Positions 10,526-30,947 of a stretch of DNA of 64,000 nucleotides are shown piece after piece. Numbering within the stretch: the stretch's first letter is position 1; each line of letters begins with the position of its first letter. The notes beneath the pieces are model-generated. The model was not told the origin of the DNA. It worked only from the letters and a program-made list of their open reading frames with translations, and made no database searches. Source of the DNA: an uncultured virus (IMG/VR IMGVR_UViG_3300011187_000006) (taxonomy: Duplodnaviria; Heunggongvirae; Uroviricota; Caudoviricetes); IMG/VR virus record IMGVR_UViG_3300011187_000006, positions 1 through 64,000 of that record; one strand, given 5' to 3'. The translations under genes and the position numbers were made by a program.

Positions 10526-10876
10526 TTAAAGATATACTTGCTTTAACTTTAAATTTCTTATAAATGATTTATTTTCTATAGCTTGTGAATCAGTAACTGA
10601 CAATATAAATGTAACTCTAACATCACCGTTTTTGAAAGCCGATGAAATTGTCATTCTTTCTATAGTAGAATTGTATAATACATAAGACACTTTAGGACTA
10701 TTATCATCATATATTATAAATTCAATATCGCCACTAGTTCCTTTAATATCTAAATACACTTTTTTTGGAATGGTGCATGTCATTTTGACCGATTCCCAAC
10801 TTTGCCAGCTATCAGGTCTTATGTTACTAACAATCTTATTACAAATGTAAAATACACTATTGTATATGAATTTCAT
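10526..10876 (-). CDS. Hypothetical protein with C-terminal RxxKL motif
   Basis: ORF track; ends IRNLKLKQVYL; TATATTTG promoter upstream. Confidence 0.55.
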   Translation of the reverse strand: MKFIYNSVFYICNKIVSNIRPDSWQSWESVKMTCTIPKKVYLDIKGTSGDIEFIIYDDNSPKVSYVLYNSTIERMTISSAFKNGDVRVTFILSVTDSQAIENKSFIRNLKLKQVYL

Positions 10877-10991
10877 TTTATTTATTTAAAACAAATATAC
10901 TAAATAATTATATATTGACAACATAATCATTATAAAAAATATATTTTTAGTGTTTTTTGCAAGGAGCGATGGTTTAGATTATATATAGAAA

Positions 10992-12731
10992 ATGGATAAT
11001 AAAACAAGAGAAGAATATAATACATTTATAGAAAAGGTAAGTCAACACTCAGTAAAAGAGTCTTGGGTTAAAAAGAATTTGCCCAATTTTTATGAATTTA
11101 CAAATAATTTAATTGGAATATCATTTACAGAAAAGGTATACTTAATAGAAAATGAAAAAGCTAAGTGTAAATCATGTGATGGTAATGTAAAATTTTTATC
11201 AATAAAAAGGGGATATAGGGAATTTTGTTCTTATAAATGTTCTAATAATAATTTAGCCTTAATTAGTACTAAAATATTATCTTTTAAAAAAAATAGCATA
11301 GATAAATGGGGTGTTGATAATCCATCTAAAAGTGAAGTGGTCAGAGATAAAATCAAAAAAAGTAAATCTATGATAGATTACGATAAAGTGAATGAAAAAG
11401 TGAAAAAGACAAATAATGAAAGATATGGAGTTGATAACGTATCGCAAATAGATGAAATAAAGGCAAAGAAAAAAATAACAACTAAACATAACTTTGGTGT
11501 TGATAATCCTTTTGAGTCAGAGGAAATTAAAAATATAATAAAGAAGCAAAATATGGTAAAATATGGTGTCACACATCATATGAAGTTGGGAAAAGTGATT
11601 GATAAACTTAAAAAAGACAATATAAATAGATGGGGTGTTGATAATTATACAAAAACTAAAATGTATAAAGAATTAATGTTTGAGAAATATAGAGGTTGTG
11701 ATATTAGAACTAACTTAAATACTAGTACGAATTATATGAATTACTTAGGTTTGGGAAAACATGAGATGTATTGTGATAACAAAGAAAACCACACATTTAT
11801 TACCAATTCTAGTTTATACCATTTTAGGAATAGACTAAATAATAAGCAATGCACTACATGTTTCCCAGTTATGAGTACTTCGTTTAAGGAATTAGAATTG
11901 TATAACTTTATAAAGAGCATATATAATGGACAAATTATACAATCCTATAGAGATGGTCTAGAAATAGACATATATTTACCTGAATTAAAAATTGGATTTG
12001 AGTTTAATGGATTATACTGGCATAGTGAATTATTCAAAGATAAAAACTATCACCTAGACAAAACCAAGCATTTTAACAAAAGGGATATAAGAATTATACA
12101 TATTTGGGAAGATGATTGGTCAGATAGAAGGGATATCTTAGAAAGTCAGATAAAAAATTGGATTGGATTAACGGATAATAAAATATATGGTAGAAAATGT
12201 GTTATAAAAGAAATAGATGATGTTAGTGAATATAGAAACTTCTTAAATAATAACCATATACAGGGATATGTATCTGCATCTTTAAAAATAGGACTATATT
12301 ACAATGATGAATTGGTGTCCTTGATGACATTTGACCATTTTGAAGGACGTAAGAAGATGTTAGACTCTGAATGGAATTTGTCAAGGTTTTGTAATAAAAT
12401 AAATACTAGTGTTATAGGAGGTGCTAGTAAATTAATATCATATTTTAATAAAACATATAAACCAACTCGTGTCATATCATTTGCAGATAAATCATGGTCA
12501 ACTGGTAATTTGTATACTAATCTAGGATTTTATATTAAAAATATCACATATCCCAATTATTCATATATAGTTAATAAAAATAGATCAAATAAACAAAAGT
12601 GGACTAAGAAAAAGCTTATTAAGATGGGTTATGATAAAAATTTATCAGAATCCAAAATAATGGAAGATAACCTTGGTTCTTATAAAATATTTGATTGTGG
12701 ACAGATAAAGTTTGAAAAAATATATAGATAA
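10992..12731 (+). CDS. Hef-like homing endonuclease
   Basis: Repeated (W/Y/F)GVDN, EIDIYLPELKIGFEFNGLYWHS and WEDDW motifs. Confidence 0.7.
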   Translation: MDNKTREEYNTFIEKVSQHSVKESWVKKNLPNFYEFTNNLIGISFTEKVYLIENEKAKCKSCDGNVKFLSIKRGYREFCSYKCSNNNLALISTKILSFKKNSIDKWGVDNPSKSEVVRDKIKKSKSMIDYDKVNEKVKKTNNERYGVDNVSQIDEIKAKKKITTKHNFGVDNPFESEEIKNIIKKQNMVKYGVTHHMKLGKVIDKLKKDNINRWGVDNYTKTKMYKELMFEKYRGCDIRTNLNTSTNYMNYLGLGKHEMYCDNKENHTFITNSSLYHFRNRLNNKQCTTCFPVMSTSFKELELYNFIKSIYNGQIIQSYRDGLEIDIYLPELKIGFEFNGLYWHSELFKDKNYHLDKTKHFNKRDIRIIHIWEDDWSDRRDILESQIKNWIGLTDNKIYGRKCVIKEIDDVSEYRNFLNNNHIQGYVSASLKIGLYYNDELVSLMTFDHFEGRKKMLDSEWNLSRFCNKINTSVIGGASKLISYFNKTYKPTRVISFADKSWSTGNLYTNLGFYIKNITYPNYSYIVNKNRSNKQKWTKKKLIKMGYDKNLSESKIMEDNLGSYKIFDCGQIKFEKIYR

Positions 12732-12834
12732 ACAAGTCTTATATTAATATAAGTTAAACCTATCAAAAAATATCTAGAAATAACTAAACATAGTAGAGTT
12801 ATAATGATATATATAGTAAACAAAATTTAATTAT

Positions 12835-13803
12835 ATGAGCAAACAAGAAGAACCAATTTTAAAGGAAAATCCAAATAGATTTGTAATATTTCCATTACAA
12901 CATAACGATATTTGGCAAATGTATAAAACAGCAGAACATTCATTTTGGACTGCCGAAGAAATTGACCTATCACAAGATATGGACGATTGGGAAAATAAGT
13001 TAAATGATGATGAAAGATTTTATGTTAAGAATGTCTTGGCTTTCTTTGCGGCAAGTGACGGGATAGTTAACGAGAATTTAGCTGAAAATTTCTTAACTGA
13101 AGTTCAGTATGCAGAGGCTAAATTCTTTTATGGCTTCCAAATCATGGTAGAAAATATTCACTCGGAGACTTACTCTCTATTAATTGATACTTACATCAAA
13201 GATAATGAGGAGAAAGACCGCTTGTTTAATGCACTAGAGACTGTGCCTTCTGTGAAAAAGAAAGCAGATTGGGCTTTACAATGGATTGAATCAGATTCAT
13301 TTGCTGAGCGTTTAATTGCTTTTGCAGCAGTTGAGGGTATATTTTTCTCTGGATCATTTTGTTCTATCTTCTGGTTGAAGAAAAGAGGTTTAATGCCAGG
13401 TCTTACATTTTCAAATGAACTTATATCAAGAGATGAAGGCTTACATTGTCAATTTGCAACTATGATACATAACGATCATGTTATAGACCAAGTTCCAAAA
13501 GAAAGAATTAAGGCTATATTATGTGATGCTGTTGAAATTGAGAAAGAATTCGTATCAGAATCTTTACCAGTTGCACTTATTGGTATGAACTCAGACCTTA
13601 TGAAGCAGTATATAGAGTTTGTTGCAGACTTCTGGTTATTAGAACTAGGTTGTGAAAAAGTTTATAATTCTGAAAATCCATTTGATTTTATGGACATGCT
13701 TTCTTTACAAAACAAAACCAACTTTTTCGAAAAAAGAGTGGGTGAATATCAAAAAGTATCTGATAAAGCTATTGATTATGATGACCTTGATGAAGATTTC
13801 TAG
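12835..13803 (+). CDS. nrdB: Ribonucleotide reductase class Ia beta subunit
   Basis: [35 protein letters not shown] and NFFEKRV motifs. Confidence 0.97.
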
Positions 13804-13824
13804 AAATTTATATTTCATTTTAAT

Positions 13825-13856
13825 AAAAACCCATAATTATATTATGGGTTTTTTTA
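13825..13856 (+). terminator. Intrinsic terminator after nrdB
   Basis: AAAACCCATAAT/ATTATGGGTTTT stem plus T-tract. Confidence 0.75.
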
Positions 13857-13903
13857 TTTAATATATAACGTAAGTGATAAACTTAAAATGAGTAAAATAA
13901 ACT

Positions 13904-14452
13904 ATGAAATATTTAAGCAAATTCAGTGAAGTAGAAGTAATAAATGAATCTTTACCTAGGCAAAAAAGTGTAGACCAGCTGGAAAGAGTTATGAAGTTAT
14001 CTTCTAAGACAGATATAGGGAATAGAATATCAGATATGAGTAAGGAAGGTGCTAATATTGTGTATATTAGAAATCCTATTGAGAATGGATTAGAGTCATA
14101 TGAAGATTTTGAAAAAAAGAATAAAAAGTTTATACCATCATGGAACTTAAAACACTTAATGTCTCCTTTTAACGAAAGCTTTGAGTATGATAAAGATTCT
14201 AGAGGTAATACAGATCACACCGAGACAGAAAAAATAGCAACTGAAATACTTCCTCGTTTAGAAAAAATGAGAAGTGATGGTGAATCTGTAACAGTAAGAG
14301 TATTGGATAAGATGTTAGATAAGCTAGATATACACAAAAGTAAATTTGACTCAGTAATGCACCATGTTGTTGATAAAGGATTCGACCTTGATATGGAACA
14401 AGATTTAGGTGCAGATGAAGATGAAAGCTACTTAGATATTAAGATTAAGTAA
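13904..14452 (+). CDS. Hypothetical protein, possible head-internal protein
   Basis: MKYLSKFSE...INE N-terminus; TTAATATATA upstream. Confidence 0.55.
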   Translation: MKYLSKFSEVEVINESLPRQKSVDQLERVMKLSSKTDIGNRISDMSKEGANIVYIRNPIENGLESYEDFEKKNKKFIPSWNLKHLMSPFNESFEYDKDSRGNTDHTETEKIATEILPRLEKMRSDGESVTVRVLDKMLDKLDIHKSKFDSVMHHVVDKGFDLDMEQDLGADEDESYLDIKIK

Positions 14453-14684: not shown

Positions 14685-15218
14685 ATGATAATTACAAGCT
14701 ATTCATTGTTCATCAATGAGAAAAACGAAACCAAAGAAGAAAAAATATATGAATATGGATGTGCTATGTTATACTTCAATGTTAAGAACTGGGAAGAAAT
14801 AACTAGCTTTATAGACAAAGAGGATATAGGTGAAGATGGTTTGGAAGATGAGCCTCACTTAACACTTCTATTTGGACTTCATAAAGATGAAGTTAGCATA
14901 GATGACGTGAAAAAGGCATTTGAAGGTTATACTTCTATTGATATAGAATTAGAGTCAGTTGATTTATTTGAGAATGATAAGTTTGATGTTGTTAAATTCA
15001 AAGTTAAAAAAACTAAAGAATTGTTAGATATTAATGAAAAATTATCTATATTGCCACATACTACAGACTTCCCTGATTATAATCCACATATCACAATAGC
15101 TTATGTGAAGAAAGGTAAGGGTAAAAAGTATGTTGTTGATAATTACAATGCTACTCTATCATCTAAAAAAGTTATGTACTCGGCAGATGAAAAGACTATG
15201 TTTAAACTAGAAGAATAA
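14685..15218 (+). CDS. 2H phosphoesterase, Acb1 (T4 57B)-like putative anti-CBASS nuclease
   Basis: Two HxT motifs (PHLTL; DFPDYNPHITIAY). Confidence 0.7.
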   Translation: MIITSYSLFINEKNETKEEKIYEYGCAMLYFNVKNWEEITSFIDKEDIGEDGLEDEPHLTLLFGLHKDEVSIDDVKKAFEGYTSIDIELESVDLFENDKFDVVKFKVKKTKELLDINEKLSILPHTTDFPDYNPHITIAYVKKGKGKKYVVDNYNATLSSKKVMYSADEKTMFKLEE

Positions 15219-17367: not shown

Positions 17368-17403
17368 AAAAAAGCACACATTATACAATGTGTGCTTTTT
17401 TTT
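17368..17403 (+). terminator. Intrinsic terminator
   Basis: AAAAAGCACACATT/AATGTGTGCTTTTT hairpin. Confidence 0.75.
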
Positions 17404-18495
17404 GTTGTATTATTAAACAAATTAATATTTAAGTATATAATAATAAATAATAAAAGTGTTTTGATAGAATATTTAAACAAAATTATTAAAACAATAAAAA
17501 ATAAAATAAATAACATGACTTTAGCTAACAAAACTTTTAGAAACAATAAGACAGGAGAAACTATAAGAGTTTTAGATAATTTTGGGGATACTGTAGTTTT
17601 AGAAAACAAGACTAAGATTGATAAGAGTGTATTATTAGATACATCTAAATACTCGGAACAAATAGATCCTAGTTCTTTTTTAGATACATCTAGTGCCTTT
17701 TCTAGTGTGCTTAATGACATCAAAAATCTAAAAACAGATGATATGATTGATGAAAATGTTAGTTTTGATAGAGATGACTCTTTTAAACCTTCTAGTAATG
17801 AGAGTGCAATCATACAATCTAGCGAAGAGGAAGAAAGAGCAGCATTAGCTAAAAAGTATGGTGCTGAGGTTGATGTTTCTGATAGTGTGAATAAGCAGAA
17901 TGAAGCTATGAATAGAATCATAAACGGTGATGATACCCCTAGTGAAAATCCTAGTAATGCTAGAAAATCACAAGATATATCTTATGATACTAAACAAACT
18001 AGCGAAACTAGGGAAACTACAACAAGACAATCTAATGCAGAACCTATACAACAAACACAGAGGATAGATGAAGATCCGATTATAGCAATGTTTAAAAATG
18101 TCAAGAAGAATGTACCGTTTACTTTTGATTTAGAGATAGATAGGAAAATACCTCGTCTAGATTTTATAGAGATGATGGAGGATTCATATAATGTATCTAT
18201 TATTGATTTTTTAGCTGAGGAATTCACTAGAGAATTATTACATAATCCATCCTTAGTAAAAGATAGAATTAAGAGAGAAATTGAGATAAAAGTCTATGGC
18301 GAATCTAAATCTGATAAGAAAGAATCTAAACCTAAAGCTAAAGCTAAATCTAGTAAAAAGCCTAGTGCAAGTGATAGGGTTAAATCGATATCTAAGTTAG
18401 AAACAGTAGAAGAAATTGGTGTAGCTTTAAAAGGCGAGACTGCTAAGACTGTAAAAGAAGCGGGTAAGAAAAGAATTAGTGAACTAAAAAAATAG
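17392..18495 (+). CDS. Hypothetical protein (likely start ~17515, MTLANKTF)
   Basis: Long ORF; the upstream part overlaps a terminator. Confidence 0.65.
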   Translation: MLFFVVLLNKLIFKYIIINNKSVLIEYLNKIIKTIKNKINNMTLANKTFRNNKTGETIRVLDNFGDTVVLENKTKIDKSVLLDTSKYSEQIDPSSFLDTSSAFSSVLNDIKNLKTDDMIDENVSFDRDDSFKPSSNESAIIQSSEEEERAALAKKYGAEVDVSDSVNKQNEAMNRIINGDDTPSENPSNARKSQDISYDTKQTSETRETTTRQSNAEPIQQTQRIDEDPIIAMFKNVKKNVPFTFDLEIDRKIPRLDFIEMMEDSYNVSIIDFLAEEFTRELLHNPSLVKDRIKREIEIKVYGESKSDKKESKPKAKAKSSKKPSASDRVKSISKLETVEEIGVALKGETAKTVKEAGKKRISELKK

Positions 18496-18502
18496 ATATA
18501 AT

Positions 18503-18898
18503 ATGATTCAAGAAAATTTATTACAATCAGCAGTAACTATAAGACAAGAGTATTTAAAGGTTTCATCTAATATAGAACTATATCACAAAAGATCAAAAGA
18601 AATAGTATCTATTCTAGATAAGAATATAGAGAGTCTAGATAAGCTACAAAAAGACATCAAGAGTAAGAAGGTAACTGATCCAGAGAAGTCAATATCTAAG
18701 CTAATGGAGGTTATTAAAGAGGTAGAGGTAGAGGGAAATAAGCTAGAAACACTTATGGCACCCATGAATAAAGAGATTGAGAAACTACAAAAGGAAGAAA
18801 ATGAGTTATTTAGAACATTAAAAGAAAAAAACCCAGAATTATCTGATGATCAGATAATTAAAGAGGTTGGGGATAGGCTTAGACAAGAAAATTTATAA
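18503..18898 (+). CDS. Coiled-coil hypothetical protein
   Basis: ORF track. Confidence 0.6.
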   Translation: MIQENLLQSAVTIRQEYLKVSSNIELYHKRSKEIVSILDKNIESLDKLQKDIKSKKVTDPEKSISKLMEVIKEVEVEGNKLETLMAPMNKEIEKLQKEENELFRTLKEKNPELSDDQIIKEVGDRLRQENL

Positions 18899-19017: not shown

Positions 19018-20103
19018 ATGAGTAATTCACCAGTAAGTGGTATTCTAGTAGACTTTAAATTAGAAGGAAGTGGTATTGTAAACTTTGATTCAACAGATCA
19101 GAAGTTCATGTTCTTCAAAGATGCTAATAAAAAAGATGATGATAGAATGCCAAAAGTAAAAGCATTGGCACAGATTAACGATAATTGTAACTATTCTAAA
19201 AAGAATTTCTTCTATAACGAGAAAGGTCAGTTAGATTTTAAGGTTAAGATATCAGCAGAATGTTTTAACAAGGCACTGTTTAAAGAAGATTACGTAGAAG
19301 ATAACCCAAGAGCTTTATATGATAAGAATACTCTTTATAACTACCTAGGATCTACACATGCAATCCTAAAGGGTTATTTGAAAGCAACAAAGGGTGAAAG
19401 TTTAAAAAGAAAAGGTCCAATAACCACAGGCAATATCCAACAGACATGTACTGCACTACCTACTTTACCACAAGCAGTTAAAGCAGGTAGTAAAAAGTCT
19501 CCAATCTCTGGAAAGGGTAGTACAAGCTTGTTTCAATATGAGTCTTTAGGAGATATAAAATATAGTGGTACTTCCTTTATAGACATTGGACAATTACAAT
19601 TTTTATCTTGTGATGCAGCTTTCGATAGATATGGATTTAATCCAGATAATGCTGAGATATTGATAAAGTCTTTGAATATGAATCTTAATAGCACTGATAC
19701 AAAGTTGGCATATTACAAATTATCAACATCATGTCTAGATCTTGCAGAATATGGTATTAAGCTGAATGATGATAATGTTGTATATTTGGTAAAAGAATAT
19801 ATATACCGTTTGTTAAAAACACAAATAAAAAGAAGTAATGCTAGTGCTGATGTAATTAGCGTTAGAATAAAGCTAGTAAGAGATCCTTATGTAGATACTA
19901 TGAGAAATCCAGAAGGTTGGGATGATATAAAAAATATGAAAGATATTAAAAATATCTCGTTTAAACCCTTTGATTTTTATGAGGAAGTTAGTGGTGTTAT
20001 AGTTGAAAAAACAGAAGAAAGAATTAATAAAGGTATCGAAAAAGAAAAGGCTATAATCAAAGAGGCGGCTGAAGAGAAAGCATTAAAGTCTAAAAAGAAA
20101 TAA
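19018..20103 (+). CDS. cas7: Divergent Cas7-like Cascade backbone protein
   Basis: First gene of the operon before cas6 and the array; N-terminal beta strand plus GIVNFD and KISAECF pattern of the Cas7 RRM; 361 aa. Confidence 0.65.
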   Translation: MSNSPVSGILVDFKLEGSGIVNFDSTDQKFMFFKDANKKDDDRMPKVKALAQINDNCNYSKKNFFYNEKGQLDFKVKISAECFNKALFKEDYVEDNPRALYDKNTLYNYLGSTHAILKGYLKATKGESLKRKGPITTGNIQQTCTALPTLPQAVKAGSKKSPISGKGSTSLFQYESLGDIKYSGTSFIDIGQLQFLSCDAAFDRYGFNPDNAEILIKSLNMNLNSTDTKLAYYKLSTSCLDLAEYGIKLNDDNVVYLVKEYIYRLLKTQIKRSNASADVISVRIKLVRDPYVDTMRNPEGWDDIKNMKDIKNISFKPFDFYEEVSGVIVEKTEERINKGIEKEKAIIKEAAEEKALKSKKK

Positions 20104-20112
20104 AAATAATTT

Positions 20113-20982
20113 ATGGAATATCTTAAACTAATATTCAAAGATGCCAAATTATTTAGGTATAATAAAGGCACTAAAGACAAGTCTATATATTCTGGACCTA
20201 AAGTTCATAGAGTTAATAGAAATAACTTATTTTCTTATGTAGAGCCAATAACACATCATCAATTGTCTAATTCAATTCATGTACTTCTAGGTGAGAGACC
20301 TGTTCCTCTTCATAGAAAAGTCTTTTATAAGAGAATAAGTGAAATTGATGACTTGGTGTCAAATTCACTTATTCGTGTAGAAACTGTGTTTAAACCTGTT
20401 TTTAAAAACAATAAGGTCAATAAGTATCTAGAGACTATATCAACTAAGAAAGCTTTCTACAATTCATTTAATCCATCAATTAAATTGAATTGGGAACTAG
20501 TTAGAAAATATATGACTTATAATAAAGGTCTAGCCTGGGGGTATTTTGTAAAGGAGTTTTCAAAAATACTTAAAAAGAACATTCTAGAATATAACTACAA
20601 AGACATAGAGTCAGAGATAAGAAATATAAAAGATGACACAAAAGTCAAAGCTGTTTTTGTAGCTATTTCTAGACTTGGTAAAACAGCATTGGTTAGAACT
20701 ATCCAGACTGGTAAAAATACTGTAACTTCATCAATACAAGATGGAAGTCCTATATTGGTAAATAGTGGTATTGAGAAGTTTGAAATATACAATGGTGAAA
20801 TATTAATACCAGTAAATGACTTTTTACGAGAAAGGGAGAGTGTGATGAAGCCATTTTCAACTATATTAGATGGTGGTATTGTATTTATTGATGGCATCAT
20901 TGATGAAGAAGATATAAGTAGCAGAGAGTTTGATAAATACAAAAAAGTATCTGATATATCAAATCAAATTATTAACCATTAA
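20113..20982 (+). CDS. cas5: Divergent, enlarged Cas5-like protein
   Basis: Lies between cas7 and cas6; YLKLIFKDAKLF N-terminal strand and C-terminal LDGG loop; 289 aa. Confidence 0.55.
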   Translation: MEYLKLIFKDAKLFRYNKGTKDKSIYSGPKVHRVNRNNLFSYVEPITHHQLSNSIHVLLGERPVPLHRKVFYKRISEIDDLVSNSLIRVETVFKPVFKNNKVNKYLETISTKKAFYNSFNPSIKLNWELVRKYMTYNKGLAWGYFVKEFSKILKKNILEYNYKDIESEIRNIKDDTKVKAVFVAISRLGKTALVRTIQTGKNTVTSSIQDGSPILVNSGIEKFEIYNGEILIPVNDFLRERESVMKPFSTILDGGIVFIDGIIDEEDISSREFDKYKKVSDISNQIINH

Positions 20983-21697: not shown

Positions 21698-21719
21698 TAG
21701 TTTTTATATCCTAAATGAC

Positions 21720-21754
21720 ACTTATATATCTAGCTGAAAGCTAGATATATAAGT
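21720..21754. promoter_or_regulatory. Perfect 16-bp hairpin in the array leader
   Basis: ACTTATATATCTAGCT-GAA-AGCTAGATATATAAGT, 3 nt before the first repeat. Confidence 0.6.
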
Positions 21755-21757
21755 TAG

Positions 21758-22520
21758 GATAGTAATCATATTAATACGCAAGGTAATCACAACGAACTTG
21801 TAATTCCGAACACGGAAAGCCTAGATAGTAATCATATTAATACGCAAGGTAATCACAACTATTCTCTACATTAGTATGCCCCAAAATACGATAGTAATCA
21901 TATTAATACGCAAGGTAATCACAACACTTATAGCTAAACGAATTATACCGTTTTTGATAGTAATCATATTAATACGCAAGGTAATCACAACACTTACAAC
22001 GCAAGCTAGAAAATCTTGCAAGATAGTAATCATATTAATACGCAAGGTAATCACAACTCGATAATTAATATTTTGAATGAGCGTAAAGATAGTAATCATA
22101 TTAATACGCAAGGTAATCACAACCATATAACCTTTAGTCGCTTGTTAATCATAGATAGTAATCATATTAATACGCAAGGTAATCACAACGATAGCGACTC
22201 TGATGCCTACGTAAAGAACGATAGTAATCATATTAATACGCAAGGTAATCACAACAGATACTCTCAAGTTAATAACTGAATTAGTGATAGTAATCATATT
22301 AATACACAAGGTAATCACAACCACAAATCAAAGTTCCAACAACTCGATTATGATAGTAATCATATTAATACGCAAGGTAATCACAACCCATAAAAATTTG
22401 TAGCAAAAGACCTCCTAGATAGTAATCATATTAATACGTAAGGTAATCACAACGGTAGCTTAATAAGTAGCTTCATCATTCTTTGATAGTAATCATATTA
22501 ATACGTAAGGTAATTATCTA
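21758..22520 (+). CRISPR. CRISPR array 1: 12 repeats (GATAGTAATCATATTAATACGCAAGGTAATCACAAC, 36 nt), 11 spacers of 30-31 nt
   Basis: 66-nt periodicity read directly; first 8 repeats identical, last one degenerate. Confidence 0.97.
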
Positions 22521-22533
22521 CATAGATAAAAAT

Positions 22534-22546
22534 AGTTCTTTGACAT
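22534..22546 (+). promoter_or_regulatory. boxA-like antitermination motif between the two arrays
   Basis: AGTTCTTTGACAT resembles the boxA consensus (GYTCTTTAACA / GTTCTTTGA). Confidence 0.4.
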
Positions 22547-22618
22547 TTTAAAACAAACCACTAAATAATTAAATGTAGTAATTACAACACTTTATTGACA
22601 TATGCTTTAATAGCACTA

Positions 22619-23511
22619 TATAGAAATCATATTAATACATAGGGTAATCACAACCTTAACACAAATATCTACCAAAAGGCTTAGATAGTGATCATATTAA
22701 TACGTAAGGTAATCACAACGAGATGAGAAGAAATGTTTCTGAGGTGATTGATAGTAATCATATTAATACGTAAGGTAATCTCAACTGGTAATTATTTTAT
22801 AAAGCATGGTAGCATGATAGTAATCATATTAACACGTAAGGTAATCACAACAATATAGATGATGTTCTGCCTCCTACTTTAGATAGTAATCATATTAATA
22901 CATAAGGTAATCACAACTAAATACACGTTTAAACTGTCTGAATATGAAATATTAATCATATTAATACGCAAGGTAATCACAACGAATAGTACTTTAGATG
23001 TTTCTTAACTTCTGATAGTAATCATATTAATACGCAAGGTAATCACAACATCCAATCAACTACTAAAAAAAGTCCATTTGATAGTAATCATATTAATACA
23101 CAAGGTAATCACGACACAATTTCAGCCATTATCATAGCTTCTGTTGATGGTGATCATATTAATACGCAAGGTAATCACAACTACTCTTCTCCCAGGAGTA
23201 AAAGTTATGTAGATAGTAATCATATTAATACGTAAGGTAATCACAACAGAAAGTTTATTAATCGTCCAAAAAACTTTGATAGTAATCATATTAATACATA
23301 AGGTAATCACAACCAAAAATAGGGTGAAAGTAATACTAAGCTAGATAGTAATCATATTAATACGTAAGGTAATCACAACTACGAAGTAGACTTAACACCC
23401 CTTTTTGGAGATAGTAACCATATTAATACATAAGGTAATCAAAACCGACCTTCGCAACAATCGAAGCTAATTATTAGTAGTAATCATATTAATACATAAG
23501 GTAATCATAAA
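22619..23511 (+). CRISPR. CRISPR array 2: 14 more variable repeats, 13 spacers of 29-30 nt
   Basis: Same repeat family with point variants; terminal repeat degenerate. Confidence 0.97.
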
Positions 23512-23565: not shown

Positions 23566-25815
23566 ATGATAGTAGCAAAGTCGAATAATGGTAATAATAT
23601 ATCATTAGAGGAACATTCAAAGGAAGTCAGTGATAAGGCTGTGAAAGAATTAAAAAAATTACCAAATGTGAAAGAACACTTAATGGTAAACATAAAGGTA
23701 GCTTCTCTATTGCACGATATTGGGAAGTCAACAGACTCTTTCCAAAAACATATAAATGGAGAGAAAGTAGATAAGAAACATAAAAACAAGTACTTACATC
23801 AACAAGTTTCATGGGCTTTTGTAGATACTTATTTCGATTATGTAAATTATTTCAAAGACAACGAAATAAAGAATTGTGTTGGTAAAAACATAATACCCAA
23901 TCTAATATATTGGCATCATGGTATCTTGGACAATGAGGGGATTTGTGCCAAAGATGTTTTAGGTAGTATACCATCTAGTGATATAGATACCATGAAGAAA
24001 GAGCTTGGTAAACTAATTGACAGTAAGTATATCATTAATAATCCTAAAAAAAATAACAATACTAGACCTGATTACTTTTTATTTAACAAAGATAGGAAAG
24101 AAAAAACAGACAACCTCAACCGAGATATAACATTAATTAGAATGATATTAGTTTATTCTGATAGAACTATATCTGGTGCTGATGATATAAATCTTAAAAA
24201 AGCAAACAAGTTCTTATTTGAAGTTTGTCACTTCCCTGACGACAAAAGATTCAAAGAGCAAAAAAAGATTATAAATGATATTAAGGATGAGGATAAAACT
24301 ACAATAATTAAAGCACCTACAGGATTTGGTAAAACTATGTTAGGTCTTATGTGGAGTGAGAAGTCAGATAAAAAGTTATTGTGGGTATGTCCTAGAAATA
24401 ATATAGCAATATCAACATACTATTCTATTGTAAAAGAATTAGAAGACTCTGAAAAGAAAGTAAATATAGAACTAAGGTATGCTGGGAAGGTTCAAAAGTC
24501 AAGCTTTAATGGAGAAGGAAAAGAAGCAGATATCATTATTACAAACATTGATTATTATCTAAGACCATATAGTAATGCTGGTAAAGACATGTCTCTTATG
24601 TATTTTATAATACATAGTGATGTTATATTTGATGAGTATCATGAAAATGTAACTGATTTACCTATATTTAGCCTCTTTATAAACCTTATGAGAGTTAGAA
24701 ACATAAAGACAGATTCTAGAACTTTGTTATTAAGTGCTACACCCATCGATATAAGCCATTTGTGGACTACTAATTCAAACAAAACTAAGATTATACCCAA
24801 TGATAAAAATCACTTACCTTCTATACATAATAAAAAATATAATGTTAATATTGTAAATAAGATACCTAATACAATATCAAACAATGAGATATTATTTGTT
24901 AATTCAATAAAAGAATCACAAGAAATTGCAAAGAAATTAACAAATGCTATATTAATACACTCTAATTTCATAGAAGGTGATAAATCAAAGATGTTTGATA
25001 AATTGTTAAATGATTATGGTAAGGATTCTAAAACAACTAACAGAAAGCCTTACATATCAACACTTATTTTACAAGCGGCTCTTGATATATCTTTTAATAA
25101 TCTATATGAGATACCATTATCCCCAGAATCCACATTACAACGGATAGGAAGATGTAACAGATGGGGTCGGAATAAAACTGCTACTATAAATATTATAGAC
25201 ACTTGTCCCACCACATCAAATGGCTATGTCGTTGATATAAAATATAATGAGAGTTTAAGAAAACTTTGGGTTGATCATTTAAAATTATTGAGTGGTAGTT
25301 CCTTAACACTTGACGAGATATATGTACATTATAATGATTTTAATATTACAAATAATACTGAAATAGTAGATTACATAGATGACAGTCTTCATCAAAGTAA
25401 TGAAAGTTCGAGTAACAATATATACCCAGTCAAGCATTATAACACAACACCACCAAGTTATATGTCGGCAAATTCTAACCCACTTAGAAGCAACGGTTCA
25501 GAAGTATTTTTTATAGTACAGGACGTTAAAGGCAAATGGGTTGGTCCATTCACCAAGAGCATGTACGATAGTTTTGATAAAGATTTTAATGAAGGTGGTA
25601 CCGCCATTTCGGTAGGTAAGATGATAAAAATAATAAAAAATATATCATCACCTACTTCTGGGTATAAATATAATTATGGTATAAATAGTAATAAACATTA
25701 TAAAAATATTAAAATAGACGATCTTAGAAGAAAAGCTAGGTTAGATAAATCACCCTATATAGCTATTAATTTCTCTTACGACTATAGGCTAGGGATAATT
25801 AAAAAGATTATTTAA
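23566..25815 (+). CDS. cas3: Cas3 HD nuclease-SF2 helicase
   Basis: EEH, HDIGK, WHHG and SD HD motifs; APTGFGKT, DEYH, SATP and QRIGRCNR helicase motifs. Confidence 0.95.
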   Translation: MIVAKSNNGNNISLEEHSKEVSDKAVKELKKLPNVKEHLMVNIKVASLLHDIGKSTDSFQKHINGEKVDKKHKNKYLHQQVSWAFVDTYFDYVNYFKDNEIKNCVGKNIIPNLIYWHHGILDNEGICAKDVLGSIPSSDIDTMKKELGKLIDSKYIINNPKKNNNTRPDYFLFNKDRKEKTDNLNRDITLIRMILVYSDRTISGADDINLKKANKFLFEVCHFPDDKRFKEQKKIINDIKDEDKTTIIKAPTGFGKTMLGLMWSEKSDKKLLWVCPRNNIAISTYYSIVKELEDSEKKVNIELRYAGKVQKSSFNGEGKEADIIITNIDYYLRPYSNAGKDMSLMYFIIHSDVIFDEYHENVTDLPIFSLFINLMRVRNIKTDSRTLLLSATPIDISHLWTTNSNKTKIIPNDKNHLPSIHNKKYNVNIVNKIPNTISNNEILFVNSIKESQEIAKKLTNAILIHSNFIEGDKSKMFDKLLNDYGKDSKTTNRKPYISTLILQAALDISFNNLYEIPLSPESTLQRIGRCNRWGRNKTATINIIDTCPTTSNGYVVDIKYNESLRKLWVDHLKLLSGSSLTLDEIYVHYNDFNITNNTEIVDYIDDSLHQSNESSSNNIYPVKHYNTTPPSYMSANSNPLRSNGSEVFFIVQDVKGKWVGPFTKSMYDSFDKDFNEGGTAISVGKMIKIIKNISSPTSGYKYNYGINSNKHYKNIKIDDLRRKARLDKSPYIAINFSYDYRLGIIKKII

Positions 25816-25932: not shown

Positions 25933-27882
25933 ATGGCTAAAATCTCTAAATTTGTAAAATTAAATAAAGATATATTATTAGAATATATTTATAATGATGC
26001 TAACCTACTGAGTGAACCATATAACATATTGGTTAACTCAAAAGATAGGACAACTGGATATTTTTCAACAAGTACATCATCCACTAGCAATACAAAAACA
26101 AATCAATTATTTAGACTAGATCCAATAGAATCTAAATGGGGTAAGGTAGATGAAAGTAATTATACATTTTTACAAGAAAAAAACTATACTGCATCCTCAC
26201 CACTAAGACATGATACAGTTAAAATACATTTACCTATAAATTGGACATTTGGACAATACTTAGGATTTTATGTTAGAATATATGCATTTGATAGGTTAAA
26301 TCAAACACAACATGATTTATCAAATTTCTATTTTGATATGACAGATGTTGAACAACAGTATTTACTTAATTTTTCATCACCACCACTTCTATTCCAAGAG
26401 AAACTTTGGGGTAAGAATATTGTATTAGATATACCAGCTTTAAGTGAGGTTTCTACACAATTAACAAATCAAGAACCAACTGAAAATAGTCTTAACTCTG
26501 TTCTTACTAATGGTCTTGGTTTAAATATAAATTCCCCTGTATTTATAGATTTTCATTTTATAAATAAAACTCAGAGAATAAATCAAATAAAGACATATTT
26601 ATTAGAAAGTGCAATTACTACAACAATTCCACAGACACCAGAATTTGAAAAACTAGGTCTTAAAATAGAAAACTCCCCTAATGGTGACTTTTTTGAGATT
26701 TATGGAACATACAATGGTAATATAGCCGAATTTAAAAGGTTTATAGATGATGCAATACCATTGGGTAACAGATACTATGTACAATACAATATAACGATAT
26801 ATGAGCAAAATATAAGGGGTAAAACAACTACTATAACACTTACTAATAACTTCAATGAGACTGTTGAATATAGACCTATTATAAAGTACTCAACCACGAC
26901 TGCTATTATAGATGTAGAACTTAGACTTATAGACTCTGTTGACCAGTCTTATATAATAAGAAGGGCATCATATGGTATGTTACAAGATGAGGTATCTAAG
27001 TATTCTCTTAGAATGACTAAAATAAATATAGCTAATGCATCCAAGCCAAAGGTGTATAATATAAAATCTTCAATAAATCCAGATTTAGTTGGAGTTGCTA
27101 ACTCTTTTGGTGTTATACCAATAAACAACACTCCTAAATCACCTATTAGACCTAGAATAACACTAGATGAATTAAATTCAAATAATAACAATAGTAATAA
27201 TGGTGGCAATGGTGGCGTTATTGTAGAACAAGTTAAAGTACCATTCCCTGTTTTGGTAGATAGGTTTAATATAATGGCTAAATCAGAAAGTTCAGTATTG
27301 GACGAAAGTAGGTTCTATGGATTTGGTAAAATACAAATACTTTTATATCCGTTTGATAATGTAATATCATTCACAATAGCTTCTGGTACTAATGAAAAAC
27401 CAAAATACCTAGATTTAACAGGTTATTCTGAAATTCTATTTACCATAAAGAACGACAAAACATCAATATCATTCTCTCCTTTTATAGAATCTGGTGAAGT
27501 AGACCTAGCAAATGGTATAGTTGTATTTAAAATAACACAAGGTAAATTCAGTCAAATAAAACAAATATTTACTAGTGGTATAAACGTTTTTTATATAACT
27601 GGTACTAATTCATCAACTACTTCAGTTGTCTATACTGGGTTGTTTAAAATATATGATGATATGAACAATGTTGGAGAATTAAATGATGACATAGAAAATG
27701 GTGGGGTAGAACAAGATGTTGTAACTGAACCAGAGAAGGAAACTGCAATAGTAACTAGAAGAGTTATTAGTGATGACAACAGACCAATTAAAAAGTCTAG
27801 TTCTGCTAATACACCCAATACTAATAGCAGACCAAATGATGTTAGATTTAGGGATTCTGGTGATGATATATTCAATGAATAA
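25933..27882 (+). CDS. Large hypothetical protein, probably virion structural
   Basis: 649-aa ORF with beta-rich composition; TTAATATATA upstream. Confidence 0.55.
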   Translation: MAKISKFVKLNKDILLEYIYNDANLLSEPYNILVNSKDRTTGYFSTSTSSTSNTKTNQLFRLDPIESKWGKVDESNYTFLQEKNYTASSPLRHDTVKIHLPINWTFGQYLGFYVRIYAFDRLNQTQHDLSNFYFDMTDVEQQYLLNFSSPPLLFQEKLWGKNIVLDIPALSEVSTQLTNQEPTENSLNSVLTNGLGLNINSPVFIDFHFINKTQRINQIKTYLLESAITTTIPQTPEFEKLGLKIENSPNGDFFEIYGTYNGNIAEFKRFIDDAIPLGNRYYVQYNITIYEQNIRGKTTTITLTNNFNETVEYRPIIKYSTTTAIIDVELRLIDSVDQSYIIRRASYGMLQDEVSKYSLRMTKINIANASKPKVYNIKSSINPDLVGVANSFGVIPINNTPKSPIRPRITLDELNSNNNNSNNGGNGGVIVEQVKVPFPVLVDRFNIMAKSESSVLDESRFYGFGKIQILLYPFDNVISFTIASGTNEKPKYLDLTGYSEILFTIKNDKTSISFSPFIESGEVDLANGIVVFKITQGKFSQIKQIFTSGINVFYITGTNSSTTSVVYTGLFKIYDDMNNVGELNDDIENGGVEQDVVTEPEKETAIVTRRVISDDNRPIKKSSSANTPNTNSRPNDVRFRDSGDDIFNE

Positions 27883-28530: not shown

Positions 28531-28809
28531 ATGGAATATTTAAAAGAATGGAAAGAGTTCAATCCTGTATTAGATTTAAAAGTAAAGGAGTATGTGAGTA
28601 TGAATAAGTACAACCTACCAGATTTATGGAACAAGAGTTTGTCTGAGGACGAAAATGTAGATTCTATGATTGAGTACTTTACTAAGTATCCAAATGAAAT
28701 GGTACATTCTATAAGCAATGATAACATAAGAAAAGCGAGTCAGAAATCTAACTCGCTTGAATATGTGCCTATTCTACAGAATATAGGGGGTCATTCTTTC
28801 GAAGCCTAA
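28531..28809 (+). CDS. Hypothetical protein (MEYLKEWKEF N-terminus)
   Basis: ORF track. Confidence 0.55.
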   Translation: MEYLKEWKEFNPVLDLKVKEYVSMNKYNLPDLWNKSLSEDENVDSMIEYFTKYPNEMVHSISNDNIRKASQKSNSLEYVPILQNIGGHSFEA

Positions 28810-30947
28810 ATTTCTTCGTCCTTGGGCTTAGAAACTCTCTTCTTTCTTTTCTTACCAAGACTAACTACTGACTCATCCAAATCTTTATCATAGCTAATTG
28901 TTAGTGTAGAACCCTCTTTAGGACTTTCTTGGATGATAAACTCTGTTACATAATCATCAATCCAAGTCTGTAAAGCTCTTTTAAGAGGTCTAGCACCACT
29001 ATCTAAGTTATAACCAACATCTAGAAGGTGTTCCTTCAATTCATCTGTTACAATTAGATTATATCCAATATCAGAACCTCTTTTAAGTGTCTTAGTAATT
29101 TCAAGTTCAACAATCTTCATAATGTCATCTCTGTCCAAATCTTTGAAGTAGATAATATCATCTAATCTATTGATAAACTCTGGTGGAAAAGCCACACTTA
29201 ATTCCTTTTGTAAAATAGCTTTAACTTTATTGTGTTCTTTCTCAACTGATGTTTTTGTTGAGAAGCCTAGTCCAGTTCCAAAACTCTTAACCTTTCTAGT
29301 ACCAACGTTTGATGTCATCAGAATAACACAATTCTTAAAAGATACTTTTCTTCCATGTGAATCTGTTACAACTCCATCATCTAACATTTGTAAAAATAGA
29401 TTGACAACATCAGGGTGGGCTTTCTCAATTTCATCAAAAAGAATAACAGAGTAAGGCTTTCTCCTTACCTTATCCAATACATTACTATCTTCATATCCAA
29501 CATACCCAGGTGCAGAACCTTGGATTCTAGTAAGGGAGACTTTCTCCATGTATTCAGACATATCTAAACGAATAATAGAATCCTCTGAGTCAAACATATA
29601 CTTAGCAATTTGTTTAGCCAATTCAGTTTTACCAACTCCACTATTACCAATTAGTATTCCTGAGAAAATTGGCTTGTTAGGATCTTTCATACCAACTCTA
29701 CCTCTCTGTATAGCTTGTACTACTTTTTTAACTGCTTTGTCTTGACCAACAACGTTATTTGAAATAACATCAAACATTTTGGCTAATTTAGAATTTTCTT
29801 TTTGCCCAACCTTACTAACAGGAACTCCAGTTATCATAGATACTACTTGTGCAACATCTTCTTGTGACACAACTTGTGGGTTATTTTTAGTATCTTCTTC
29901 CCACTTATCTCTAGCCAATTCTAATTCGGCATCAAGTTCTTTCTCAACATCTCTAAGTCTAGCAGCTTGTTCATATTTTTGAGACCTAATTACTTTTTTC
30001 TTTTCTTCTTTAATATCCTCAATCTTTTTCTCGATTTCAGTTATCCTTTTAGGAACAACTATATTTGAGATATGAACTCTTGATCCTGCCTCATCTAATG
30101 CATCAATTGCTTTGTCTGGTAAGAATCTATCACTCATATATCTGACTGTAAGATCAACACAAGATTCAATTGCCTCTTGTGAGTAAACCACATTATGATG
30201 CTTCTCATATTTATCTTTGATGTTTCCTATGATTTGTAAAGTTTCCTCTGGTGTGGCAGGTTCTACGATTACTTTTTGAAATCTTCTTTCCAAAGCAGCA
30301 TCTTTCTCAACATGCTTTCTGTATTCGTCTAATGTTGTTGCACCAATTATCTGAATTTCACCACGTGCTAATGCTGGTTTGAACATATTGGAGGCATCTA
30401 GGCTACCAGATGCTCCACCAGCACCAACCATAGTATGAATTTCATCGATAAAAAGAATAACATTTGGCTCATCTTCTATTTCACTCATAAGAGCCTTAAC
30501 TCTTTCTTCAAATTGACCCCTATATTTAGTACCAGCTACCATAGATGCTAAGTCTAACATAACAATTCTTTTATCAAAAAGAACTCTACTTACCTTTCTC
30601 TGTACAATTCTAAGTGCTAGACCTTCTGCAATAGAAGATTTACCAACACCAGCTTCACCAATGAGAATAGGATTGTTCTTTTTTCTCCTAGATAAAATTT
30701 GAGAAACACGTTCTATTTCTTTATCTCTACCAACAATAAGATCTAGCTTACCATCTTCTGCCATATTAGTAAGATCTCTACTATATGTATCAAGGACAGG
30801 AGTCTTAGATTTACCATTCTTCTTGTCAGGGACTTTAAAATCTTCATCTGGTGGTCCATCATCTGCAATAGAGTTTTTCACATCGATAGTTTTTCTTAAG
30901 TAATCTTTCCCTTCTTTGTCTTTTTGCATAATTTGATTTTTATTCAT
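28806..30947 (-). CDS. clpC: ClpC/ClpB-family AAA+ ATPase lacking the N-terminal Clp repeat domain
   Basis: Two Walker A motifs (GEAGVGKS, GNSGVGKT), FIDEIH, FDEIEKAH, UVR-type middle domain, PGYVGY. Confidence 0.9.
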   Translation of the reverse strand: MNKNQIMQKDKEGKDYLRKTIDVKNSIADDGPPDEDFKVPDKKNGKSKTPVLDTYSRDLTNMAEDGKLDLIVGRDKEIERVSQILSRRKKNNPILIGEAGVGKSSIAEGLALRIVQRKVSRVLFDKRIVMLDLASMVAGTKYRGQFEERVKALMSEIEDEPNVILFIDEIHTMVGAGGASGSLDASNMFKPALARGEIQIIGATTLDEYRKHVEKDAALERRFQKVIVEPATPEETLQIIGNIKDKYEKHHNVVYSQEAIESCVDLTVRYMSDRFLPDKAIDALDEAGSRVHISNIVVPKRITEIEKKIEDIKEEKKKVIRSQKYEQAARLRDVEKELDAELELARDKWEEDTKNNPQVVSQEDVAQVVSMITGVPVSKVGQKENSKLAKMFDVISNNVVGQDKAVKKVVQAIQRGRVGMKDPNKPIFSGILIGNSGVGKTELAKQIAKYMFDSEDSIIRLDMSEYMEKVSLTRIQGSAPGYVGYEDSNVLDKVRRKPYSVILFDEIEKAHPDVVNLFLQMLDDGVVTDSHGRKVSFKNCVILMTSNVGTRKVKSFGTGLGFSTKTSVEKEHNKVKAILQKELSVAFPPEFINRLDDIIYFKDLDRDDIMKIVELEITKTLKRGSDIGYNLIVTDELKEHLLDVGYNLDSGARPLKRALQTWIDDYVTEFIIQESPKEGSTLTISYDKDLDESVVSLGKKRKKRVSKPKDEEI

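Follow-up and report, generated by a model that had tools for sequence, protein, structure and literature searches.

A Cas8-less, I-F2-like CRISPR cassette with VI-B-like repeats in a probable megaphage genome, and a possible host source of its spacers

Phage systems of CRISPR (short palindromic repeats, clustered and regularly interspaced) that lack adaptation genes are already known, as is the filling of arrays in trans within one cell, described for VI-B arrays served by II-C proteins and for plasmid IV-A3 arrays served by a I-E module. In Flavobacterium columnare, the sections of Hoikkala 2021 (PMC8092290) that deal with acquisition report that the VI-B array gains spacers in trans through the II-C Cas1, as confirmed by deletion of cas1; that a leader-distal GTTGT, which reads ...ACAAC on the transcribed VI-B strand, is common to the repeats of II-C and VI-B; and that transcription of VI-B arrays starts at the leader end. 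The IV-A3 systems of plasmids acquire spacers through the I-E Cas1-Cas2 of the host (Benz et al. 2024, as summarised in passages of PMC11656645 and PMC8092290). For huge phages, the corresponding part of Al-Shayeb 2020 (PMC7162821) describes CRISPR systems of which nearly all lack Cas1, Cas2 and Cas4, with compact arrays, some host-like repeats and spacers against other phages. Here we describe a CRISPR-cas cassette in the DNA of an uncultured virus (IMG/VR record IMGVR_UViG_3300011187_000006, 78,739 bp), whose first 64 kb we call the window. The cassette combines a predicted type I effector of the I-F2 kind with two arrays whose repeat end is that of Bacteroidota VI-B arrays.

Our favoured explanation is that a phage-borne cassette of the I-F2 kind would target DNA with CRISPR RNAs (crRNAs) cut by its own Cas6 and would receive its spacers from the host. 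We give this explanation as a whole a probability of roughly 60%; its parts are graded separately below. The in-trans acquisition known from F. columnare, to which a first-pass annotation of the window had pointed, is published work, and it provides the precedent for the last part of this reading.

Layout of the cassette and its effector genes

The repeats lie on the + strand between cas6 and cas3, and the cassette with its borders comprises the following features (nt, nucleotides; aa, amino acids; coordinates are those of the window).

17392-18898, + strand: p367 and p131 (367 aa and 131 aa), conserved megaphage genes, non-cas; left border of the cassette
19018-20103, + strand: cas7, 361 aa, putative Cas7fv-like backbone subunit
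20113-20982, + strand: cas5-like gene, 289 aa
20993-21697, + strand: cas6, 234 aa, putative Cas6 endoribonuclease of the generic or I-B kind
21698-21757, + strand: leader of array A, after cas6
21721-21734 with 21740-21753: perfect 14-bp palindrome in the leader, with a 5-nt loop at 21735-21739
21758-22520, + strand: array A, with 12 repeats; of its 11 spacers, 10 measure 30 nt and 1 measures 31 nt
22521-22618, + strand: inter-array insert of 98 nt, non-spacer
22619-23511, + strand: array B, with 14 repeats, more degenerate; of its 13 spacers, 12 measure 30 nt and 1 measures 29 nt
23566-25815, + strand: cas3, 749 aa, HD nuclease and superfamily 2 (SF2) helicase, no Cas2 fusion
25933-27882, + strand: p649 (649 aa, no family), conserved megaphage gene; right border of the cassette

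Tandem Repeats Finder (TRF) reports arrays of period 66 at 21758-23382. When up to 9 substitutions are tolerated, the 36-nt repeat GATAGTAATCATATTAATACGCAAGGTAATCACAAC occurs 26 times at 21758-23511 and nowhere else in the window on either strand. Of the 24 spacers, 22 are 30 nt long; the spacer at 22454-22484 measures 31 nt and that at 22655-22683 measures 29 nt. These spacer counts, and the repeat 3′ end GGTAATCACAAC, agree exactly with the first-pass annotation. Its description of one array with 36-nt repeats and spacers of about 30 nt was right in geometry but not in number, as there are two tandem arrays of 12 and 14 repeats separated by the 98-nt insert. In array A, 9 of the 12 repeats match the consensus exactly and the last one is missing its 3′ end; in array B, 13 of the 14 repeats deviate from it, by 1-6 bases each. 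The insert contains a badly degenerate repeat remnant (22553-22588) that ends in GTAGTAATTACAAC, as well as the top sigma-70-like site of the + strand, TTGACA-18-AATAAT (22540-22569). Its sequence is the same in the window (row W) and in L003, L009 and L016, where L-numbers denote related loci; G-numbers denote records (G000 being the 78,739-bp record itself), X-numbers metagenome runs and s-numbers spacers. Rfam CRISPR-DR families gave no match to the window array at E up to 1, and control VI-B and I-B arrays were likewise unmatched, so that this comparison is uninformative.

The first-pass annotation placed the effector in class 1, and matches to Cas families and to PDB structures bear this out. 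Cas7 matches NF040577 (NCBIfam Cas7fv) with an E of 1.1e-24 at 87 bits, short of the equivalog cut-off of 200, and its structural matches are 5o6u_C, the Cas7fv of the Shewanella I-Fv Cascade (E 2.9e-13), and 9g44_F (E 2.7e-13). Judged by these matches, we classify it as a distant member of the Cas7fv type. Among 5.8 billion proteins only 4 clusters of this Cas7 were found, and a tblastn search of GenBank phages with it gave no match. The Cas5-like protein has its best structural matches in two entries, the minimal Cascade of Shewanella putrefaciens (5O6U/5O7H) and 9G44. Cas6 matches PF01881 (E 1.6e-11) and TIGR01877 (E 5.5e-14), the latter with 53 bits, slightly below the cut-off of 58.65. 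In Cas3, TIGR01596 (cas3_HD) covers residues 14-203, TIGR01587 (cas3_core) matches with an E of 1.8e-22, and PF22590 and PF00270 match as well.

The borders of the cassette are set by synteny with LR745206.1 (634,780 bp), in which homologues of gp32, p367 and p131 are followed by those of p649 and p199 across a gap of 56 nt that is free of cas genes; p649 is 62% identical to the gene right behind the p131 homologue. This arrangement argues that the cas genes and arrays form a cassette of about 7 kb (~18.9-25.9 kb) inserted among conserved megaphage genes. The same synteny led us to reject p367 as Cas8 and p131 as Cas11. Inside these borders there is no room for Cas8 and Cas11 genes, and only cas7, cas5, cas6 and cas3 are left; the same four genes recur in L001, L002, L006 and most of the 48 loci of the Cas7 family considered below. 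On the basis of its gene content and family matches, we assign the predicted Cas8-less type I system to the I-F2 (I-Fv) kind rather than to I-B; only its Cas6, foreign to I-F2, is of the I-B kind. Family scans of the window open reading frames (ORFs), with a Cas1 search of the whole record, revealed neither Cas9 nor Cas1. No Cas13b-like protein appeared in family scans of 21 window ORFs (10992-34770), G000 not having been searched with NF038190, and this Cas13b family was absent from 5 related and 4 further phage records, Bergeyella serving as the positive control for the latter 4.

The record is estimated by CheckV to be 11% complete and its near-identical relative G001 20%; the G+C content is 26-32%. 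Genes around the cassette are typical of phages and include a ribonucleotide reductase beta subunit, gp32, a DEDD exonuclease, a 2H phosphoesterase, a ClpB-like ATPase and Dam. The segment from gp32 to p367 shares 71% DNA identity with two records labelled 'uncultured phage', of 634,780 and 642,428 bp, and genomes above 634 kb are attributed to the Mahaphage clade, with predicted Bacteroidetes hosts, in the relevant part of Al-Shayeb 2020 (PMC7162821). The fragment is very probably part of a Mahaphage-like megaphage genome that carries a cas7-cas5-cas6-arrays-cas3 cassette, a judgement that covers identity and architecture jointly.

Repeat family, Cas6 and crRNA processing

The last 12 nt of the repeat lead to Bacteroidota. 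We searched one genome each of 185,579 species for a pattern of these 12 nt, a gap of 48-60 nt and the same 12 nt again. The 13 loci found included two period-60 coding repeats (Clostridia) and an overlapping pair; after these were accounted for, 10 CRISPR-like places were left, all in Bacteroidota and all with 36-nt repeats and 30-nt spacers. When the 22 nearest of 101 listed ORFs in their flanks were scanned, 5 of the 10 proved to adjoin Cas13b (NF038190, E 1e-238 to 1e-275) with Csx27 or Csx28, in Bergeyella zoohelcum, Chryseobacterium sp., Sphingobacterium hungaricum, a Bacteroidales metagenome-assembled genome and Capnocytophaga stomatis. Homologues of the window Cas proteins were found at none of the 10 places. 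In B. zoohelcum ATCC 43767, the array adjoining Cas13b and Csx27 has the repeat GTTGGAACTGCTCTCATTTTGGAGGGTAATCACAAC, whose last 12 nt are those of the window repeat; the first-pass annotation had named this identity, and it holds when tested. Ungapped, the window repeat agrees with the VI-B repeats at 20-26 of 36 positions, and at 10-14 of the 24 positions outside the 12-nt tail. In a shuffle test of the part outside the tail, the value of 14 (Sphingobacterium) was reached by 29 of 20000 shuffles and that of 11 (Bergeyella) by about 250 of 20000. A search of literature text for the 12-mer tail returned only unrelated papers.

The further claim that 36/30 geometry typifies both II-C and VI-B arrays of Bacteroidota stands for VI-B but does not hold for II-C arrays in general. 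The Cas9-linked repeat of Bergeyella is at least 45 nt long with a period of 77, which gives 30-nt spacers if the repeat measures 47 nt, and shares with the window repeat only the ...ACAAC end. F. columnare is the exception in II-C repeat length, and elsewhere II-C repeats are ~11 bp longer than VI-B repeats, as stated in the comparative section of Hoikkala 2021 (PMC8092290).

Two other loci with this kind of repeat deserve mention. In L026 (Flavobacteriales bacterium UBA7612), a 1109-aa protein is encoded at 10662-13991, immediately upstream of an array that is VI-B-like and has the same tail. NF038190 does not match the protein at 1e-5, and by BLASTP it is not clearly similar to any Cas13b; it may be a very divergent Cas13b or another effector. 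The phage record G009 (362,603 bp, direct terminal repeats, 100% complete) has three small arrays of full VI-B-like repeats GTTGTTGATCTATTGAATTTGAAAGGTAGTCACAAC (L020 lies at 9-898) and neither Cas13b, Cas1 nor a homologue of the window Cas7 or Cas3, which makes it a candidate for phage use of host Cas13b.

Twenty viral loci show the same tail pattern. Four of these relatives are near-identical to the window, with 96-100% amino-acid identity (L003, L009, which is the place of L014, L016 and L017); three distant ones, L001, L002 and L006, carry the four cas genes too, with an identity of 25-33%. A profile search with Cas7 gave 11 loci from viruses and 45 from metagenomes; after removal of 5 that were duplicates or almost identical copies, 48 loci were examined. 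Arrays of the window repeat family with 36/30 geometry are present in 26 of the 48, every one of them accompanied by a homologue of the I-B-kind Cas6, and the window-type Cas6 also occurs in two loci without a detected array. The arrays of this clade mostly end in ...AATCACAAC, a few in ...AATTTCAAC or ...ATTCACAAC. Ten other loci, here called classical, have hairpin repeats of 27-36 nt that end in (A/G/C)(T/C)(T/G)GAAA(G/C), with spacers of 33-38 nt against 30 nt in the window-repeat clade; none of the 10 has the window-type Cas6, and in three of them a Cas6e-like protein (PF08798, 174-176 aa) is encoded instead. A Cas7 tree of 44 rows, built by quick maximum likelihood and rooted at the midpoint, sets the 25 rows of the window repeat family opposite the 9 classical rows. 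Homologues of the phage Cas6 are found in 3 of 401 Flavobacteriales genomes at 26-32% identity, and the nearest bacterial one belongs to a I-B operon (G216) with a 30-nt repeat ending in CAATTGAAAG and 36-nt spacers. Since Cas6 and repeat are distributed together and the repeat of the I-B operon is a different one, we conclude that the two switch as one module and that the clade repeat is not an ordinary I-B repeat; the grouping with I-B repeats that the first-pass annotation had allowed for was not seen. Across these loci, Cas6 and repeat appear to behave as an exchangeable module.

Two observations extend the picture of this family. The Cas7fv-like family pairs with at least two Cas6 kinds (L045, L047, L079, L082, L094), one Cas6e-like (PF08798) and one a 184-aa protein of no family (L045, L047). 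In addition, G002, G003 and G005 (L004, L005, L010, L011, L019) hold up to three dispersed small arrays per record, of the window repeat family and far from cas genes, and in G005 (128 kb, 41% complete) no homologue of the window Cas7 or Cas3 was found.

The relatives also indicate where Cas6 might cut. In 18 repeats linked to type I genes of the clade, positions 17-20 pair with 25-28 around a GNRA-like loop, with 79.2% of cells paired, and two of the four hairpin pairs show compensatory change (U-G/A-U at 18/27 and C-G/U-A at 19/26). The covariation of the hairpin is 0.364 against 0.228 in shuffles, a value reached by 1 of 500. A register with a 5-nt loop (18-20 with 26-28) was tried and was outscored by that with the 4-nt loop. 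The helix ends 8 nt before the 3′ end of the repeat, and by analogy with other Cas6 enzymes a cut at this point should leave AUCACAAC as the 5′ handle, the part of the repeat that is most conserved across the 18 arrays. A cut by Cas6 that yields a handle of about 8 nt is, on this analogy, probable. The same 8-nt AUCACAAC handle had been put forward in the first-pass annotation and fits the hairpin and its compensatory changes, the cut itself being a prediction.

All arrays of the repeat family, phage and bacterial, end in a final repeat that has lost its 3′ part, which fits a leader on the 5′ side. In the mechanism that we propose, transcription of the + strand would start in the leader behind cas6, with the promoter-like site in the insert perhaps giving array B a second start. 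Cas6 would cut each repeat at the 3′ base of the hairpin (17/18-28) to produce crRNAs with the 8-nt 5′ handle; Cas5 and Cas7, going by their families, would assemble on the 30-nt guide, and Cas3 would degrade matching DNA.

Both strands show further features near the leader and within the repeats. The loop of the leader palindrome reads TGAAA in the window, L003 and run X4 and is inverted, TTTCA, in L009, L016, L017 and contigs of X1, X3 and X8; the palindrome may be the site of a hairpin-loop inversion polymorphism, a cas6 terminator or a regulator site. On the - strand, TTGTGA-16-TATGAT (9 of 12 positions) occurs in almost every reverse-complement repeat at 21765-23378, a match to the consensus only, from which Bacteroidota promoters differ. 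These sigma-70-like matches bring to mind the promoters embedded in II-C repeats, which PMC8092290 also mentions.

Spacer targets and spacer supply

Window DNA is contained in 24 DNA runs, labelled as salt-lake or lake-water metagenomes, and no RNA run is listed as containing it. Contigs of four runs carry non-repeat sequence on both sides of exactly s4 (X1, X3, X8), s13 (X1), s20 (X1, X4) and s17 (X8). The protospacers of these four spacers are co-occurring DNA of the metagenomes of the same lakes. Their flanks were taken from loose contig ends, of which 18 further ones exist beyond these four spacers. The six bases upstream, in spacer sense, are CTTTGC, CTTGTG, TTTTCT and CTTTTT, with T at -5 and -4 in all four. 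Read by hand, the spacer sense is open in three of the flanked stretches and the antisense in the fourth, which weakly favours DNA over mRNA targeting. The targets of the system would thus be other DNA elements in the same lakes.

Database searches added no further targets. A blastn search of GenBank phages with the whole array matched 22 records with 83-87% identity over 36-47 nt at E of at least 0.04, none of them convincing; the window spacers matched neither the record nor the collected loci (a set of 195 spacers); comparison with 14 large phage records gave matches from repeat to repeat only; and exact scans of IMG/VR for s1, s2, s4 and s20 returned only the arrays themselves. Among the relatives, three spacers match their own contigs, at L002 8372-8401 (30 of 30 positions), L002 10380-10409 (3 mismatches in 30) and L006 16795-16826 (3 mismatches in 32), and TATTA precedes all three sites in spacer sense. 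The perfect match in L002 sits just ahead of the start codon of an ORF (182 aa) that is found two genes before cas6; the match may serve self-regulation or the targeting of close relatives.

Differences between near-identical phages indicate how array A grows. The window and L003 share the order s1 s2 s3 s4 ... s11, L009 and L016 have s25 s26 s27 s4 s9 s10 s11, and L017 has s35 s27 s4. New spacers thus stand at the cas6-proximal end with shared older ones behind them, which is the mark of polarised integration. Proteins that could perform it were sought widely. Neither Cas1 nor Cas2 was found in the 78.7-kb record; this also answers the concern, raised in the first-pass annotation, that phage cas1 or cas2 might lie elsewhere, as far as a record holding only ~11% of the genome can answer it. 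Five related records of 93-282 kb (G001-G005, among them G003 at 77% and G002 at 71% completeness) yielded no Cas1 (PF01867), and neither did G011 (596,785 bp, 98% complete), which bears a related operon and arrays ending in ...GGGAATCACAAC. The families of Cas1, Cas2 and Cas4 were likewise absent from the 150 ORFs scanned out of 190 selected non-core flanking ORFs (13 clade loci, L047 and part of L079). Among the classical-repeat relatives, L045 has Cas1 and Cas2 behind cas6, and L068 has Cas1.

We infer adaptation in trans by the host because adaptation genes were not found, spacers are gained at the leader end, the repeat is of the VI-B type in its 36/30 geometry and its tail, and VI-B arrays are filled by II-C proteins. 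In this mechanism, which the first-pass annotation had also put forward, the phage arrays would receive spacers from host Cas1-Cas2 of the II-C type. Exactly the ...ACAAC leader-distal end is retained in the phage repeat, and Cas9 and a type II Cas1 are encoded in the same genome as a tail-matching VI-B array in Bergeyella, Chryseobacterium sp. and Capnocytophaga stomatis. We put the supply of spacers by host Cas1-Cas2 at a little below even odds. More tentatively still, a clade of megaphage Cas8-less I-F2-like systems may have exchanged its Cas6-repeat module for one whose arrays serve as substrates of host II-C Cas1-Cas2, the route taken by Cas13b arrays.

Several results weigh against parts of this picture. 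The hairpin of the window repeat itself has only 3 bp, in a register shifted by one (minimum free energy -0.6 kcal/mol, z 0.05), and the support for the Cas7 split is moderate (a Shimodaira-Hasegawa-like approximate likelihood-ratio value, SH-aLRT, of 86, from the quick tree only). The four flank pairs give no clear protospacer adjacent motif and are too few to call one. The leader-proximal end of the repeat is GATAG, unlike the GTTG of VI-B repeats, and phage and VI-B leaders compared by eye show no likeness. Of five further genomes with tail-matching VI-B arrays, two have no Cas1 at all, and the relevant passage of Hoikkala 2021 (PMC8092290) regards in-trans filling as doubtful even for VI-B arrays where II-C repeats are longer, that is, outside F. 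columnare. In array B, the spacer content relative to near-identical phages is mosaic and non-polar, which could reflect recombination or differential loss rather than acquisition. Several classical-repeat relatives also have no Cas1 at the locus, so its loss is not specific to the 36/30 clade. The 195 collected spacers include no bacterial spacer that matches the record, and with ~11% of the genome in hand, a Cas1-Cas2 pair of the phage's own could lie elsewhere.

Such a module, Cas1-Cas2 with or without Cas4 in the missing ~85-90% of the genome, would reduce the likeness to VI-B repeats to shared ancestry. The low completeness of the record (11%) and of G001 (20%) speaks for it, as does L045 with its Cas1 and Cas2 beside the operon. 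We nevertheless hold it to be unlikely, given that Cas1 was not found in G011, G003 or G002, which at 98%, 77% and 71% completeness have the same kind of system and repeat, and that relatives with Cas1 place it directly after cas6, where the array stands here; LR745206.1 was searched for the repeat tail only and not for Cas1. Somewhat less improbable is shared descent or exchange of arrays without present cross-talk, in which a phage lineage captured a Bacteroidota array of the VI-B kind together with a I-B-kind Cas6 and the differences between arrays arose by recombination with those of co-infecting relatives rather than by integration through host Cas1-Cas2. The 3′ end of the repeat would then be fixed by its use as the crRNA 5′ handle read by Cas5 and Cas7, a proposal to which we attach the same low weight. 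The switching of Cas6 kind and repeat kind as one module within the Cas7 family would be expected in that case, the conservation of the handle across the 18 arrays agrees with it, and the mosaic array B and the dispersed arrays of related phages, as potential recombination partners, fit it as well. It does not account for array A, which differs at the leader end only, in three lineages with shared older spacers, the signature of integration; nor for the shift of spacer length to 30 nt, that of II-C and VI-B arrays, from the 33-38 nt of classical relatives, as this length is set by the integrase and not by the handle.

The identity of the 12-nt 3′ end with Cas13b repeats, and phages such as G009 that carry full VI-B-like arrays and no cas genes, could also mean that the phage makes crRNAs for a class 2 effector of the host, loading Cas13b or acting as its decoy, with the type I genes secondary. 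The first-pass annotation had raised such loading or jamming. For Cas13b we consider it very improbable, for the window repeat folds with -0.6 kcal/mol against -11.2 for Bergeyella and has neither the terminal GUUG/CAAC helix nor the internal helix of VI-B repeats, beginning with GATAG and not GUUG. Moreover, the arrays are enclosed by an intact cas operon, the Cas6 kind of which varies together with the repeat, and since three of the four protospacers have the sense of the open frame in our hand reading, a + strand crRNA would be unable to base-pair with those mRNAs. Supply of spacers by host II-C-type proteins to a DNA-targeting type I effector is the reading that we prefer to these three.

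Two genes outside the cassette are recorded here for their own sake. The 177-aa 2H phosphoesterase (14685-15218) matches Acb1, which counters the cyclic-oligonucleotide-based anti-phage signalling system (anti-CBASS; PF23474, E 6.1e-7, 29.7 bits, cut-off 27), and also matches 2'-5' RNA ligase families; it adjoins the DEDD exonuclease and is a possible anti-defence gene. The 713-aa ClpB/ClpA-like double AAA+ ATPase, on the - strand at 28806-30947, matches TIGR03346 with an E of 1.8e-229, below the cut-off, and has no counterpart to the first ~145 residues of the ClpB model.

Comparison with known systems

If the proposed supply of spacers is correct, adaptation in trans would extend across the border between virus and host and across CRISPR classes, with a class 1 effector fed 30-nt spacers by a class 2 module of the host. 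The repeat end ...GGTAATCACAAC could then serve as a handle for predicting the hosts of uncultured megaphages, the comparison of repeats would show which part the II-C integrase needs and which the effector needs, and the locus would represent a type I system that is compact, with four genes, and uses an unusual guide of 30 nt. If it is wrong, the likeness of the repeats still documents an exchange of arrays between Bacteroidota and their giant phages. No I-F2-like phage system with Cas13b-like repeats is described in the literature consulted, a weak negative, as the 2022 survey of virus-encoded systems and all supplements fall outside that body of text.

In its effector, the cassette is closest to the I-F2 system of Shewanella putrefaciens (5O6U/5O7H, and 9G44, 'minimal type I-F2 complex'), with which it shares a Cas7fv-like backbone, the lack of Cas8 and Cas11 genes and a Cas3 nuclease-helicase. 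It differs in that its Cas6 is of the generic or I-B kind and not Cas6f (Csy4), its Cas3 is not fused to Cas2, no Cas1 was found in the incomplete record, and it is borne by a phage. Its repeats of 36 nt and spacers of 30 nt also set it apart from I-F2, the norm for I-F being a 28-nt repeat and 32-nt spacers. From I-B systems it is distinguished by the lack of Cas8, by its Cas7fv-like Cas7 and by a repeat unlike the ~30-nt ATTGAAA(G/C) type; only its Cas6 is of the I-B kind. The I-F system of phage ICP1, with Cas1, Cas2/3 and a small Cas8f in the account given in the cited part of PMC10161043, is unlike it in all three.

In its arrays, the cassette resembles the VI-B loci of Bergeyella zoohelcum, Capnocytophaga, Chryseobacterium and Sphingobacterium, which have the same 36/30 geometry and period of 66, the same last 12 nt, a terminal repeat with a degenerate 3′ end and no Cas1 or Cas2 in the locus; here, however, the repeat is without the VI-B helices, and the effector, going by its genes, would be a DNA-targeting class 1 complex. 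With II-C systems it shares only the ...ACAAC end of the Bergeyella repeat, neither Cas9 nor Cas1 having been found in the record. The IV-A3 systems, so far as the cited passages (PMC11656645, PMC8092290) describe them, are alike in combining a mobile class 1 effector and an array with no adaptation module, a host-like repeat and leader, and competition between elements, but there the carrier is a plasmid and one class 1 system serves another, whereas here the carrier is a phage and the likeness is to arrays served by class 2. Another parallel is the VI-B/II-C pair of F. columnare, in which, on the same account (PMC8092290), an array without its own Cas1-Cas2 gains 30-nt spacers, carries the GTTGT motif and is transcribed from the leader end. 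There both loci lie on one chromosome and deletion of cas1 showed the dependence, whereas here the array is viral, the effector is of class 1 and the system is known from its sequence alone.

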